Virus record (IMG/VR): IMGVR_UViG_3300047561_000907
Span: 1-25,975 of that record
From: a virus
Lineage: Duplodnaviria; Caudoviricetes
DNA: 25,975 nucleotides
Reading direction: 5' to 3' (one strand)
Within the stretch, counting starts at the first letter, position 1. Each line of letters starts with the position of its first letter. Below, in pieces: positions 15,913 through 25,852 of this stretch. Position numbers and translations under genes: made by a program. A model generated the notes under the pieces. The model saw only the letters and a program-made list of their open reading frames with translations, did no database searches and was not told the origin of the DNA.

Positions 15913-16061
15913 CCTACGTCCAATGGGGTGAAAGATACTACGCGGTGACTTCCAACGGAGATGTTTTTGATTCTACCGGGAAACTGACCATTATCCCGGA
16001 AGGGCTAAAGAAGGCAATCAAGGAGGTTGGCATTCATGAAGAAGCAAATAGTAACAGTTAG
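15909..16061 (+). CDS. hypothetical protein
   Basis: ATG 15909 overlaps the upstream stop; MTYVQWGERYYAVTSNGDVFDSTG. Confidence 0.5.
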   Translation: MTYVQWGERYYAVTSNGDVFDSTGKLTIIPEGLKKAIKEVGIHEEANSNS

Positions 16062-16680
16062 TTGCCAGTTGCCGGAATGGTTTGAGAAGCATTCGCTCCC
16101 GCGGATTAAGGAGGCATGCGAACGGTGGGACGCAAATCTTGTCGTCATTAAGCCGGAAAAGCCGATCGGGTTGCTAGCTAAGATGTCGCTAGTCGACGCG
16201 GTGCAGAATGCTGACAGAACCCTGTTTATCGACAGCGACGTTCTTATCTCCAGGGAATGCCAGAATCCTTTTGAGCTATTCCCGCGGGGTCACTTCTACG
16301 CTTGCGCAGACGCGCCTCACGGTGACCAGTTGCATTGGGGCCGAGCGAACGAGATGATCCTATCGCAGGCAATGCTCGGATCAATCAAGTGGACTCAAGG
16401 CTACTTCAACACCGGGGTCATGGTGTGCGACAAACAGCATGCAGGGGCCTGGGGCAATTTCGTATACGCACCGTTCGCGTTCCCTGAGCAGACCTTCACC
16501 AACTACCGGGCCAGAATGCTCGGGTACTCCATTCGTTTCCTAAGTTGGGAATGGAACGCAATGGAGATCAATACGCCGAAGGATAAGAAGCAGTCAGACG
16601 GATTCATGCCACACGCAGCCGGGATTTACGGAGACGACCGCGCGAAGTGGATTGAGGAAATGGATAAGGTACTACCATGA
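16036..16680 (+). CDS. GT-A glycosyltransferase, family 8-like
   Basis: AGGAGG RBS at 16021; LFIDSDVLI (DxD), YFNTGVMV, EQTFTNY, WEWNAM and HAAG motifs. Confidence 0.8.
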   Translation: MKKQIVTVSCQLPEWFEKHSLPRIKEACERWDANLVVIKPEKPIGLLAKMSLVDAVQNADRTLFIDSDVLISRECQNPFELFPRGHFYACADAPHGDQLHWGRANEMILSQAMLGSIKWTQGYFNTGVMVCDKQHAGAWGNFVYAPFAFPEQTFTNYRARMLGYSIRFLSWEWNAMEINTPKDKKQSDGFMPHAAGIYGDDRAKWIEEMDKVLP

Positions 16681-17741
16681 GAATATTAACTCTAAAAGAT
16701 CCCATGATGTTGGACGATCGACTCCACCATCCTCACGATTCGATTGTAGTTCCTGACGAGGTCCGCGGGATACCTGGCACACATGCCGACGCGTACACAA
16801 TTCCGTACCGGGTTGGTTGCGCCTCGGGCGGATTCGCGGCCCTGTACCGCGGTGGAGCGATCGGGGATCAGTTCATCGCAATGGGCATCGCCAGAGCAAT
16901 GCAACACTACGAGGGAGACGGAAGGGTTGAGGCTTACGTTCCGCAACGTCATTTGCCGTTGTGGGAAGGATTCGCCGGAGTCAGGGTCATGCCATTAGCT
17001 CCAACCATTGCAACGTGGAAGTCATACAAGGGCCACGTTTGCCTGGACGATATATTGTCAAAGACTGCGCACCTGGACGGAAACGTGTACGACTACGTCT
17101 ACAGATCCTGGGGCGTCGAGGTCGACGATCAGTTTAAGAAGCCTTACGCCAAGCTACTGGACAAGGACCAGAACGAACTTGTTGACGTTGGGTTTCATCC
17201 GGAAGGACCGTTCCTGCTCTACTCAATCAGTGGATCGAGCCTGTGGAAGAGCTACCCAACCTACGAGGCCGGACTGTTTATCAAGTCGTTCCTAAAAGAA
17301 AATAAGGATTGGCAAGTCGTAGCAGTGGGCCACGACGATCCTCCATTATCTATCTCGCACCAGAGGCTTATCAATCTGCAGGGAAGACTACGCAATGTCA
17401 GGACTCTTCTGCACCTAGCTGCGCGTTGCGACATGGCAGTTTGCCCGGAGTCGGCAATCATGCACATGACTGCAATATTCGACGCTCCTACCGTTGGACT
17501 GTACGGACCATACGGACCTGAGCACACGTCGAAATATTACAAGTACGTCAAGCCACTGTTCCCGCAAAACATTTGTCCTCACGCCCCATGCTCGGTGTAC
17601 GAGCAACCGAAGGACAAGTGCAAAGACGCGGTCAACGCAATACAGGGAGAACCCAAATGGTGCAACGTTCTAAAGTCAATCAAGCCAGAAGATATCCTGG
17701 CAAAGACAAAAGAAATCCAGGCAAACCTAAAACAGATCTGA
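16677..17741 (+). CDS. GT-B glycosyltransferase, family 9 (heptosyltransferase-like)
   Basis: GAIGDQF, ESAIMHMTAIFDAPTVGLYGP, C-terminal CPHAPC...C...C..I.PEDI. Confidence 0.8.
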   Translation: MRILTLKDPMMLDDRLHHPHDSIVVPDEVRGIPGTHADAYTIPYRVGCASGGFAALYRGGAIGDQFIAMGIARAMQHYEGDGRVEAYVPQRHLPLWEGFAGVRVMPLAPTIATWKSYKGHVCLDDILSKTAHLDGNVYDYVYRSWGVEVDDQFKKPYAKLLDKDQNELVDVGFHPEGPFLLYSISGSSLWKSYPTYEAGLFIKSFLKENKDWQVVAVGHDDPPLSISHQRLINLQGRLRNVRTLLHLAARCDMAVCPESAIMHMTAIFDAPTVGLYGPYGPEHTSKYYKYVKPLFPQNICPHAPCSVYEQPKDKCKDAVNAIQGEPKWCNVLKSIKPEDILAKTKEIQANLKQI

Positions 17742-17911
17742 TCAGAATCGTTTCTGAGAAGAAAGTTGTTTGCTACGAATTAAATCTTGATGTTGACGAT
17801 GATGTGTACGAATCAATTGTTGAGGCCGGGCGTATCCATATTGCGAACGATAAGGAAGCACTATTCCAGTACGCGCTGAAGACCGCGCTCAAGGAGGTTG
17901 CAAATGGATAA
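17657..17911 (+). CDS. hypothetical protein
   Basis: GGAG 7 nt before ATG 17657; overlaps the last 85 nt of the GT9 gene; globular-looking C-terminal half (YELNLDVDDD...ALFQYAL). Confidence 0.5.
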   Translation: MVQRSKVNQARRYPGKDKRNPGKPKTDLIRIVSEKKVVCYELNLDVDDDVYESIVEAGRIHIANDKEALFQYALKTALKEVANG

Positions 17912-18467
17912 CTTCAAACAAAAGATTCTTACAGCAGTGTGTGAGCCAGACGTGTTGACGCAAGGCCAGTGCAATATGATCCGCGACGACGCTCAGGTCG
18001 TAGGCATGAATAGGTCTCACGTCATGAAGAAGGATGGGACGACCAGGTCTTCCTACACCAGGACATGTTCATCGTGTTGGGTACCATTCGCGGAACATTA
18101 CAAGTGGCTATACGAAGTTGTCAGGTGTGTTTCCATGGACTTGAACGACCAGCACTACAGGCTGGACATTACCGGGATTCAACAGTTGCAGATCTTGCGC
18201 TACAGGCCCGGGCAGTTCTTCCTGCCACACTTTGACTGCTTCGATGGTAGCGACCGCAAGCTAACGATGGTGATCAACCTATCAGATCCATCAGAGTTCC
18301 TTGGCGGAGGGCTCAGGGTTGAGTGCGACTTGCATAATGCGAAGGATGTAAAGAAGCGGGGATCGGCAACAATGTTCCCCACCTACATAAAGCACCAGGC
18401 GCGTCCTGTGTTTTGGGGCTCCAGATGGGTCCTAGTCGCCTGGCTAACCGGGGGTCAGTGGAGATGA
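17904..18467 (+). CDS. 2OG-Fe(II) oxygenase (prolyl-4-hydroxylase/PKHD-like)
   Basis: AAGGAGG RBS; QILRY..GQFF.PH.D, RKLTMVI.LS...F.GG.L, MFP....H...PV..G.R..LV.W. Confidence 0.85.
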   Translation: MDNFKQKILTAVCEPDVLTQGQCNMIRDDAQVVGMNRSHVMKKDGTTRSSYTRTCSSCWVPFAEHYKWLYEVVRCVSMDLNDQHYRLDITGIQQLQILRYRPGQFFLPHFDCFDGSDRKLTMVINLSDPSEFLGGGLRVECDLHNAKDVKKRGSATMFPTYIKHQARPVFWGSRWVLVAWLTGGQWR

Positions 18468-23570: not shown

Positions 23571-23843
23571 ATGAAGTATTACGCTGAAGAAGAAGGTGAA
23601 CTGACGTTCGAGCAGATGGTTCCTGGCAAGTATTATCGGTCCGGGAACGACTACGGTATCTGCGAGATCAATCAATCCGCCAGCAACAGGCCAAAGATCC
23701 TGACCTACCTCAATAGGTGCGGGAGTTGCATAGGTGGCAACGTCCTGCTGTTCGAGGTCGACATGACGGACCGGATGCTCGCCAAGCTCAAGGAGCGCCG
23801 GGACAGGACGATCGGGTTCATCGACGAGATGAGGACCTGGTGA
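23571..23843 (+). CDS. hypothetical protein
   Basis: GGAGG RBS at 23561; ATG 23571 preferred over the track start at 23436. Confidence 0.65.
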   Translation: MKYYAEEEGELTFEQMVPGKYYRSGNDYGICEINQSASNRPKILTYLNRCGSCIGGNVLLFEVDMTDRMLAKLKERRDRTIGFIDEMRTW

Positions 23844-24505
23844 GTTTACGCGCAGATAGTTCAATAGAAGAACTTCCCCTATTCCAAGGGGAGAACGGAG
23901 GTGCGATCCCTACCTCTGCGCTCCAACTTAAATTCCGGTCCATAGGGTCAAAGACGATGAATGAAGTAGTCGTAGCCAACCACTACGCGCACCGGGCCGT
24001 GCCTTGCAACTGGTCGTTCGGATGCTTCCATGGCAGTGAACTGCTGGGAGTAATCTCGTTCGGCAAACCCGCGTCGCCTCATCTATGCAGGGGCATATGC
24101 GGGGCAGAGAATGCGTCCAGGGTCTACGAGTTGAACAGATTGTGGCTCGACGATCGGTGCCCTAAGAACTCTGAGAGCAGATTCATATCCTGGAGCATTC
24201 GAGAGTTAACAAAGTTGCGACCGTACTTGATCCTGGTTAGCTATGCAGATACCGGGGCCGGGCATAACGGAATGATCTACGCAGCCACCAACTGGATTTA
24301 CACCGGACTATCTGACAAGAGATCTTCCGGTGACAAGGTTGTCGGAAACAAGCACAGCAGGCACTCTAGGACAATGGAAGAGGCAGTGATTGTGCCCAGG
24401 ACTAGGAAGCATAGGTTTGTTTACTTTTGTAACCAAGAGGATAGAACTTTACTGAAATGGAATGTAGAGAACTGGAAAGAGTGGAAAGAATGGAGGGAAG
24501 AATGA
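23840..24505 (+). CDS. mom: Mom-family adenine modification (carbamoylmethylation) enzyme, GNAT fold
   Basis: NHY.HR, FG......L.GVI.FG.P, ELNRLW......NSES.FIS, LVSYAD...H.G.IY.A.NW.YTG and K.RFVYF motifs. GTG 23840 is coupled to the upstream TGA. Confidence 0.8.
   Translation: MSLRADSSIEELPLFQGENGGAIPTSALQLKFRSIGSKTMNEVVVANHYAHRAVPCNWSFGCFHGSELLGVISFGKPASPHLCRGICGAENASRVYELNRLWLDDRCPKNSESRFISWSIRELTKLRPYLILVSYADTGAGHNGMIYAATNWIYTGLSDKRSSGDKVVGNKHSRHSRTMEEAVIVPRTRKHRFVYFCNQEDRTLLKWNVENWKEWKEWREE
23850..23925 (+). tRNA. non-canonical tRNA-Gly(TCC)-like element embedded in the mom 5' coding region
   Basis: Acceptor GCGCAGA/TCTGCGC + T discriminator + CCA; T8A9; D-stem GTTC/GAAC; anticodon stem TCCCC/GGGGA with TTCCAA in the loop; T-arm GGAGG-TGCGATC-CCT(A)CC; 76 nt. 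Confidence 0.75.
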
Positions 24506-24705
24506 GTCAATCAATTGAATGTCCTAACTGTAAATGTGAGGTCCCGGTGGCGTTATTCGCGTCCAGGATCGGCAAGGTTACGTCGGAGGCTAAGGCTAAG
24601 GCATCGATCGCTAATGGTAAGAAGGGTGGGGCGCCTAAAGGGAACAGGAATTGGGCCGGGAAAGAGCTCCCGGTGGCATCGTTTCGACCCATCAAACTGG
24701 ACTGA
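24502..24705 (+). CDS. small putative DNA-binding protein (CxxC + TSEAKA.AS..NGKKGG.P motif)
   Basis: GGAGG RBS, ATGA overlap with mom; basic KGG.PKGNRN motif. Confidence 0.65.
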   Translation: MSQSIECPNCKCEVPVALFASRIGKVTSEAKAKASIANGKKGGAPKGNRNWAGKELPVASFRPIKLD

Positions 24706-24945
24706 AACATAGCCCGAAAGGGCTAGAAACAGCTATTTCGCCCTACTCTGTTAAACCCGGGTTCTACACTGTTTCACCATTTCGTTCCCCTTATATATAT
24801 ATAATGGTGAAACAGACCCTGTTAGAGCGGGGAACTAAAGTTCCCCCGCTTCGCTTCGCTAGCGGTACCGCTCCAACCGCGGGGTCTTTTCAGTTTACCA
24901 TATGCCTTTTTGATTCTTACCAGAAAGAATAGGTGAAACATGAAA
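24703..24945. other. palindrome-rich intergenic region, putative replication origin/regulatory region
   Basis: 13-bp inverted repeat 24769-24781/24803-24815 around (TA)n; hairpins at 24710-24725 and 24826-24850; palindrome 24861-24872; several (T)GAAAC motifs. Confidence 0.5.
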
Positions 24946-25083
24946 GACTTGCGCGTCGGCCTGGATGCAATACGTTGACGCAAGCCAGTTCTTATGGGGT
25001 GGGTTGGGGAATTGGTTGCGACCCGGGAGGGGTGAAAGCGGTTCCCGGGCGCGGGGTTTTCTATCCTACCGGGAGGGTTGCAT

Positions 25084-25281
25084 GTGTCAGACGAAGCTAA
25101 AATTAAATCACTCATCGCTGAGAACATTAAGCTCAAGTCAGCATGTTCTGCGTTTTGGAAGTTGCTTACCAATTGCAACAGGAAGTGTAGTGACGAAGTT
25201 GGGGAGACATTAGTAAATGAATGTATCTGGAAACTCCAGCGACTCGCCAACTACTACGAGTCCAAAGGAACAAGCCTCTAG
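25084..25281 (+). CDS. hypothetical protein
   Basis: GGAGG RBS 7 nt before GTG 25084; helical product. Confidence 0.55.
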   Translation: MSDEAKIKSLIAENIKLKSACSAFWKLLTNCNRKCSDEVGETLVNECIWKLQRLANYYESKGTSL

Positions 25282-25852
25282 TCCTAACCAGGAATCTAAC
25301 CAGGTTCCGAAGCAGAAGAAGAGGCGCATGAAGTTGCGCTTCCCGGAAAAGAAGATTGAGAAGGTAGACGAGAAGCGCCTGGACAAAGAGCGCAGACTCA
25401 TGAATGAAGTTCCGAGTTACATCCCGGACGTTGTCATTGGCGTCAAGGGATTCCCAAAGATTACCGACGAGCACTTAACAATTGTCGAGACAGCACTCAG
25501 CAAAGGGTTTCCGTATGCAATGATTGCGGACCTATTAGGAGTTGCAAAGTCCACATTATCAAGATATCTCGCCGCCAACCCTCACATCGTGGAACGCTTA
25601 AAAAAAGCAGAGGCGCTCCACATCACGCGCGCGCTGGAAGTCATTGATAGGGCGGCAGAAAAGGGCACTTGGCAAGCGGCTGCCTGGCGCATCGAACGCA
25701 GGGCCCAGGAGCATTTTGGACAGCAGTCAAGAGTCCAGGTTGGTGGAGCAGTGGCGAACGTACACTTTACGGCCGCGGACGCGGCGCTCCTGGTCAACGC
25801 AAACAAAATTAAGTATGCCGGGAAGGCGGAGTCGAAGCCTGTTTCCGAGTGA
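25217..25852 (+). CDS. putative terminase small subunit (HTH)
   Basis: ALSKGFPYAMIADLLGVAKSTLSRYL helix-turn-helix followed by KAEA...WQAAAWRIERR...FG, the usual TerS-like pattern; start uncertain. Confidence 0.7.
   Translation: MNVSGNSSDSPTTTSPKEQASSPNQESNQVPKQKKRRMKLRFPEKKIEKVDEKRLDKERRLMNEVPSYIPDVVIGVKGFPKITDEHLTIVETALSKGFPYAMIADLLGVAKSTLSRYLAANPHIVERLKKAEALHITRALEVIDRAAEKGTWQAAAWRIERRAQEHFGQQSRVQVGGAVANVHFTAADAALLVNANKIKYAGKAESKPVSE

Follow-up and report, generated by a model that had tools for sequence, protein, structure and literature searches.

Mom of phage Mu moves glycine from Gly-tRNA-Gly to the N6 of DNA adenine (Silva et al. 2026, PMC13219725). According to this work, Mu Mom takes glycine from each of the three E. 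coli isoacceptors but not from Gly-tRNA-Ala, and its R151A variant is inactive; in the main text, as available, a tRNA gene figures only in E. coli constructs, with nothing on a neighbouring or overlapping RNA. A second described system is that of the staphylococcal non-proteogenic tRNA-Gly NP1-NP3, donors for FmhB, FemA and FemB. The genes of these tRNAs stand alone in the chromosome, belong to a lineage found only in staphylococci and function in the synthesis of peptidoglycan (PMC7826273). Finally, McMurdie et al. (2011, PMC3146451) noted in 16 Dehalococcoides islands a 76-bp tRNA-Gly-like locus that falls in the opening 150 bp of a mom homologue. This locus, called 'pseudo-tRNA' and carrying the anticodon xCC, lies in ssrA genomic islands. 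Their account covers one island type and one fosmid and predicts that Mom methylates; its available text proposes no function for the RNA and mentions neither a bulge, nor a 3' placement, nor a distribution in phages. The jumbo-phage paper of Iyer (PMC7824862), as far as its available text goes, does not link an embedded RNA to Mom's donor, and no paper tying the two was found in the literature within our search, most subscription journals lying outside it.

The stretch of DNA analysed here (the window) is a virus record of 25,975 nt carrying virion, endolysin, primase-helicase and terminase genes, as assigned by Pfam and PHROG. As in Dehalococcoides, a mom homologue carries a 76-nt tRNA-Gly-like fold in its first 150 bp, and, likened by description, the two very likely belong to the same family. 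The Dehalococcoides locus is part of an ssrA-specific integration module (dsiB, dsiA, parB; PMC3146451), whereas the window is not part of one: no recombinase, ParB or tmRNA was found in it, nor an integrase among its 28 ORFs scanned with Pfam and PHROG. The window RNA shares with the staphylococcal RNAs described in PMC7826273 a T loop containing TGC, an anticodon stem of 6 bp with a small loop (6 nt, against 5 nt in the NP tRNAs) and the glycyl-tRNA synthetase (GlyRS) marks; for both, a division between EF-Tu and a transferase of GNAT fold is proposed. It differs from them in lying on mobile DNA, in overlapping the gene of its presumed client, and in its bulged T stem, free wobble base and presumed DNA acceptor; no Fem family member was found by Pfam among the 28 window ORFs. 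The staphylococcal likeness put forward in the initial annotation is likely convergence, not kinship. By analogy, the window RNA would work like the staphylococcal ones as a separate lineage and not as a member of theirs.

The RNA and the gene that it overlaps

The features of the locus are as follows; the parts of the RNA were read directly from the sequence.

23571..23843, + strand: upstream ORF of 90 aa, without Pfam or PHROG family, serving as neutral anchor when presence and absence were compared
23840..23843, + strand: GTG start codon overlapping the TGA of the upstream ORF, the shared start slot of a modular operon
23840..24505, + strand: mom-family gene, 221 aa from GTG (Pfam PF25680, PHROG 1384 and 8bv8, by profile and fold)
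23850..23925, + strand: tRNA-Gly(UCC)-like RNA, 76 nt with encoded CCA (direct reading, Rfam, fold and covariance model)
23850-56/23915-21, + strand: acceptor stem, 7 bp
23859-62/23870-73, + strand: D stem
23863-69, + strand: D loop, 7 nt, without GG
23875-79/23888-92, + strand: anticodon stem
23880-87, + strand: anticodon loop, 8 nt, around TCC
23897-901/23909-14, + strand: T stem, with unpaired A23912 inside
23902-08, + strand: T loop, with G at position 55
23912, + strand: bulged A between T-stem pairs 50-64 and 51-63, recurrent in homologues and a signature of the family
23922, + strand: U73
23923-25, + strand: CCA
25217..25852, + strand: downstream terminase small subunit gene (PHROG 4102, E 8.4e-18)

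The feature at 23850-23925 is confirmed as first described. The D loop without GG, G55, the bulged A23912 and the anticodon loop of 8 (or 6) nt can all be read in the sequence, and both insertions appear in the alignment to Rfam RF00005, which matches 23850-23921 with 28.7 bits (gathering 29, E 0.029). Pairing of 23880 with 23887, which covaries among relatives, would extend the anticodon stem to 6 bp and leave a 6-nt loop. The minimum free energy fold of the element is a cloverleaf (z -3.46), and none of 200 shuffles was equally stable. ARAGORN missed the element at default settings and returned it as the sole match in the window at -ps90; thresholds of 80 and below were discarded as noise. 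A family covariance model trained without the window sequence gave it 62.4 bits (E 7e-14), and blastn of the element against annotated phages returned chance matches only.

A canonical elongator tRNA has an uninterrupted 5-bp T stem, U55, a D-loop GG and a 7-nt anticodon loop. The window copy departs from this at each point, with its bulge, G55, lack of GG and 8- or 6-nt loop; among ordinary viral tRNA-Gly controls, the D-loop GG is present in 53/56. On the other hand, the window copy keeps U33 and the UCC triplet, and the initial claim that its synthetase determinants are intact holds, as G1-C72, C2-G71, U73, C35, C36 and the 3' CCA are all present. The T-stem pairs G49-C65, G50-C64 and A51-U63 sum to about +0.7 kcal/mol, i.e. 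weaker, according to Table 2 of PMC3239215, the bulge being uncounted as this table gives no value for it; a search of that paper turned up nothing on a bulged T stem.

The overlapping ORF of 221 aa matches Pfam PF25680 (Mom) with E 1.7e-39 (136 bits, cut-off 27.1) and PHROG 1384 with E 2.4e-49. When a profile of 60 homologues was searched against the PDB, the only match was Mu Mom (8bv8, E 1.3e-26), which is also the best fold match of the AlphaFold model (Foldseek E 2.2e-13, TM about 0.7). The mean pLDDT of this model is 87.9, with residues 1-20 at 46-55 and residues 21-30 at 82; the GNAT core starts at about residue 30. Aligned to Mu Mom by hhalign (27% identity), the protein retains six of the seven putative active-site residues of Mu, namely H58, Y59, R111, S124, D149 and Y159 as H48, Y49, R100, S113, D137 and Y147, while R151 aligns to Gly139. 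Judged from these profiles and the modelled fold, the window protein is a member of the Mom family with the Mom GNAT fold, and its enzymatic activity is predicted.

Codons 4-29 of the gene overlap the RNA in frame, the RNA beginning 10 nt after the GTG at 23840, and this GTG is the true mom start. A longer ORF from 23717 was rejected since homologues begin near 23840. The internal ATG at 23957 was rejected as well, since starting there would remove the first predicted strand and only 1/86 distinct 5'-placed copies has an ATG within the first 8 codons past CCA. No in-frame start is conserved after CCA in these copies; an in-frame start lies at most 39 nt upstream in 78/86 of them, usually 4-13 nt before G1, and an in-frame stop inside the element was seen in 1/86. 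Since the GTG is the real start and lies upstream of the element, the RNA would be translated as part of mom.

Selection on the RNA and its tie to mom

In the register of the window (26 sequences), 98.1% of cells pair and two-sided changes occur at 15/22 pairs, including the extra pair closing the anticodon loop; the 7-nt-loop register gave 97.9% and 15/22. For a set selected by Mom protein (64 distinct rows, one of them an ordinary tRNA, leaving 63 family rows, in an alignment fitted to the model), the values were 97.6% and 20/22, with 0/500 shuffles as high, and the T-stem pairs covary in the bulged register. All four stems covary, and selection acts on the RNA.

Conservation along the RNA is uneven. 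Acceptor pairs 1-3 are nearly invariant and the remaining stem positions change compensatorily. Among the 63 protein-selected elements, G1-C72, C2-G71 and U73 occur in 63 each and C35 and C36 in 62 each, and the CCA is encoded in 75/84 elements. Since these invariant positions coincide with the E. coli GlyRS identity set (G1-C72, C2-G71, U73, C35, C36; PMC9976931), the charging marks are retained. In contrast, U33 is found in only 24/63 elements against 52/56 ordinary viral tRNA-Gly. About half of the 63 elements have A at position 34 and the rest U or C, never G, while A34 is absent from the 56 controls; according to PMC6720975, almost every organism excludes tRNA-Gly with A34. Pair 32-38 is Watson-Crick and covaries, positions 33, 34, 54 and 55 drift freely, many elements measure 66-71 nt with a shrunken D arm, and the window's clade has an anticodon loop of 8 or 6 nt. 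The family bulge falls among the three T-stem pairs read by EF-Tu (PMC3239215). The positions lost in the family concern EF-Tu and decoding (PMC3239215, PMC6720975). The uneven spread of changes, with the acceptor end spared, supports the earlier proposal that the pattern suits a tRNA diverted to a transferase better than random decay.

The survey of homologues, suggested at the outset for the bulge and G55, gave a divided answer. The bulged A recurs in 60/63 protein-selected elements and in 21/21 bacterial copies, which also all keep C35/C36. G55, present in 58/63 protein-selected elements, falls to 26/68 in the 5' class, and 16/21 bacterial copies have U55. Likewise, the loss of the D-loop GG holds for the window and fails as a family rule, GG being present in 38/66 of the 5' class. 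Only the bulge is near-universal across the family; G55, the loss of GG and the 8-nt loop are features of clades.

Codon positions separate the RNA from the peptide. Among 32 close relatives, third codon positions vary less in the element (0.171) than in the Mom core (0.482); within the element, they vary more than first and second positions in the window clade (0.058 and 0.043). C2 and C35 stand at third codon positions and are invariant in 55/55, across 4 and 6 or more different amino acids, respectively. For copies placed at the 3' end of mom, the reading frame across the RNA is 0, 1 or 2 in 21, 10 and 30 of 61; since all three frames are used, no single peptide is conserved, and a conserved peptide role was rejected. 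The single dominant frame in the pattern-selected set was put down to a sampling effect. A motif that we take to be clamp-binding-like was seen in the translated anticodon arm and set aside, as those residues vary and the RNA bases do not.

To locate the family from DNA only, a pattern made of the bulged T arm, the acceptor 3' strand and CCA was used, which returned 120 viral loci with about 970 stretches estimated. With 900-nt flanks, 72/80 pattern-found loci match a local Mom profile and Pfam confirms 71/80 (70/70 plus L085), one locus (L042) being dropped as its opposite-strand gene is a generic GNAT by Pfam. An unbulged control pattern gave a Mom match in 0/80 loci, including 56 distinct ordinary tRNA-Gly. 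In 29 of the 71 loci the element precedes the adjacent mom (27 in frame), and in 42 it follows mom. Of the nine remaining loci, three lie so close to a contig edge that about 100 nt at most precede the 3' end of the element. Whole-contig searches of five located mom 1.3 and 1.7 kb off in two; among the other three, one has a cut-off mom fragment below threshold and two are incomplete records without mom. Two bulged elements, L042:558-632 (- strand), facing the GNAT acetyltransferase, and L149, have no Mom seen nearby.

Conversely, the covariance model found the element in 69/80 loci of one Mom clade (not in 11/80), in 13/80 of another Mom set, 12 of which are near relatives favoured by the ranking (not in 67/80), and in 21/66 bacterial mom loci, 19 of them from Chloroflexota. 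A descriptor that does not require the bulge retrieved 49 elements in 48/160 Mom loci; every one of them has its bulge at one and the same position, and the opposite strand and shuffled sequences yielded no element. Elements occur in viral contigs and beside mom in Chloroflexota, Acidobacteriota and Acidimicrobiia. On a FastTree of 235 Mom domains they are scattered over several 5' and 3' clades among element-less lineages, with modest deep support. These family counts include related sequences and are not counts of independent events.

Six annotated phages were checked. Salinibacter phage B2_17 has a bulged element right after the mom stop, Arthrobacter phages BarretLemon and Wyborn have an unbulged one without encoded CCA, and Microbacterium phage Appa has a near-canonical tRNA-Gly(CCC) on the opposite strand just past mom (L383:1824-1898); the mom regions of Mu and phiEf11 have no element. 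B2_17, BarretLemon and Wyborn thus offer cultured carriers. The unbulged members L229-L231, L382 and L384, the Arthrobacter phages among them, carry G37 and no encoded CCA and may be transitional, linking ordinary tRNA-Gly to the bulged type. A tandem pair of mom genes is apparent in L165, L202, L205 and G001 (L388, L390), and L165 has two identical element copies about 710 nt apart.

A swappable operon slot

Among 31 relatives anchored on the unrelated 90-aa ORF (two rows from one contig), RNA and mom are both present in 17, both absent in 14, and never found one without the other. In the 14 cassette-free loci (L392, L397-L401, L408, L411, L413-L415, L418, L420 and L421), the GTG/TGA overlap is retained and then followed by other sequence. 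The RNA-plus-mom cassette, which sits upstream of the packaging gene, therefore occupies a swappable operon slot. One metatranscriptome contig skips the cassette at the GTG/TGA junction alike. The three metatranscriptome runs contain small shares of contigs from roughly 90%-identical relatives, which cannot show ends, strand or processing; an RNA contig end at 23851 was not taken as processing, as it coincides with the divergence point of cassette-bearing and cassette-free relatives.

A scan for promoters and terminators stayed at chance level. An attP or integration-scar reading was rejected, given a complete, covarying RNA and the lack of an integrase among the ORFs scanned. The gap between mom and the terminase gene (window 24700-24960) looks non-coding; it contains a run of AT dinucleotides together with several short inverted repeats and is a possible origin or packaging site. 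A cluster at 16027-18467, on the upstream side of the replication genes, comprises two glycosyltransferase-like genes (Pfam GT8 and GT9) and a 2OG-Fe(II) oxygenase, possibly a second modification pathway.

A proposed glycyl donor and its alternatives

What is observed comprises the covarying cloverleaf with its GlyRS set and recurrent bulge, its association with mom and overlap in frame with that gene, and the Mom fold. Since the RNA is under selection, keeps its charging marks, loses its decoding marks and is tied to mom, and since Mu Mom needs Gly-tRNA-Gly and rejects Gly-tRNA-Ala (PMC13219725), we propose that the element is probably a processed, glycylated, non-translating RNA acting as a dedicated glycyl donor for Mom. 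The transferase served is likely the Mom enzyme whose gene overlaps the RNA. Host tRNA-processing nucleases would cut the RNA from the mom message, with RNase P acting at G1 and 3' trimming to CCA, and host GlyRS would load it with glycine. The bulge and the remodelled loops would keep the glycylated RNA off EF-Tu and the ribosome, and Mom could then move glycine from the element to adenines of phage DNA, the product being 6-NcmdA by analogy with Mu. A cut at G1 would leave the body of mom without its start codon, and each transcript would therefore yield either the enzyme or the donor RNA. The 8 nt past CCA are AT-richer than their surroundings (0.67-0.70 versus 0.50-0.51), which is weakly consistent with processing. 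An RNA acting in trans would also fit the copies found outside the mom frame, 1.3 and 1.7 kb off or, in B2_17, after the stop.

Several points weigh against the donor role: R151 is not kept, some members are unbulged (3/63, and the Arthrobacter phages) and the tRNA-Gly of Appa is near-canonical. Mu differs from the window in using host isoacceptors, with no element by its mom gene. Since Mu Mom uses all three E. coli isoacceptors and many Mom loci lack the element, a private donor is not required. More tentatively, and at somewhat less than even chances, we extend the proposal to widespread one-gene, two-product cassettes, in which the coding sequence of the enzyme would encode its own ribosome-proof aminoacyl-tRNA cofactor, the bulge would act both as EF-Tu anti-determinant and as a mark for Mom, and processing would set the enzyme:donor ratio by destroying the message.

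If the donor role is true, it would represent a second, independent solution based on a dedicated non-translating tRNA, beside that of staphylococcal cell-wall synthesis and built into the gene of its client. It would account for the way in which many Mom enzymes escape competition with EF-Tu for Gly-tRNA, and would give a function to the tRNA-like locus noted in 2011. An estimated thousand or so viral stretches would then contain an RNA often missed by tRNA finders and annotated only as protein. A natural glycyl carrier orthogonal to translation could also be a useful reagent.

The most serious competitor, which we nevertheless regard as unlikely, is control in cis: nucleases cutting the cloverleaf in the message, or GlyRS or Mom binding it, would tune mom output, and any released RNA would be a by-product. 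Persistent overlap of element and ORF is also expected of a cis-regulatory element. Indeed, the start lies at most 39 nt upstream of the element in most 5' copies (78/86, as above), and 3' copies are read through in 56/61, with a stop before G1 in 0/61 and stops in the mom frame in only 4 elements, versus 31 and 46 in the other frames; Mu mom, for its part, is annotated as governed by a separate translational regulator, Com. However, this read-through is largely explained otherwise, as the mom stop falls -20 to +15 nt from the start of the next gene in 43/56 read-through 3' copies, which suggests translational coupling to that gene. Many of the genes that follow 3' elements (L155-L234) have N-termini that we take, by motif, to be terminase-small-subunit-like. 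The window's fold shows a leader-trailer helix hiding the start codon, yet this pairing is not conserved (mean z -0.29, n=58) and was rejected as a family trait. Furthermore, a message-bound mimic would need no joint U73, CCA and distal C35/C36, and copies of the element exist outside the ORF. Control in cis is compatible with the donor role, and both may operate.

It is improbable that the RNA, charged and not preferred by Mom, serves as a decoy or buffer that absorbs anti-phage attack on tRNA-Gly or spares the translating Gly-tRNA pool. Although U73 and G71 also specify acetylation of Gly-tRNA-Gly by TacT (PMC9976931), and any host isoacceptor suits Mu Mom (PMC13219725), a general decoy would not be expected to be confined to mom loci (71/80 versus 0/80) or to be gained and lost together with mom, as among the 31 relatives. 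We give still less credence to an odd phage tRNA-Gly competent in translation and replacing the Gly-tRNA consumed by Mom. The tRNA-Gly(CCC) of Appa, the Gly calls of ARAGORN for L046, L067, L229, L230 and L382 and the U33 and UCC of the window copy would suit such a tRNA, but the free drift at 33, 34, 54 and 55, the loss of the D arm and the 8- or 6-nt anticodon loop in the window's clade would not, nor would an A34 that nearly all organisms avoid (PMC6720975). Finally, a relic origin, in which a defunct tRNA gene or integration scar was taken up as an N-terminal peptide and is conserved purely as protein, is very improbable and largely ruled out by covariation: while 5' copies keep frame, third positions vary more and residues 21-30 are confidently modelled, all four stems show compensatory changes, C2 and C35 stay invariant across differing amino acids, 3' copies use three frames, residues 1-20 are modelled at low pLDDT and an integrase is absent among the window ORFs scanned.

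With respect to the amino acid presumably carried, two minor observations can be added. A minority of elements (L045, L079, L106 and L143) have A73 instead of U73. A73 is the discriminator described for archaeal and eukaryal tRNA-Gly, and its presence here might reflect the type of host GlyRS. An Acidobacteriota copy (L361:1969-2041) keeps the bulge and C35/C36 and has U1-A72 and C73, so that, from its sequence, its amino-acid identity may differ.
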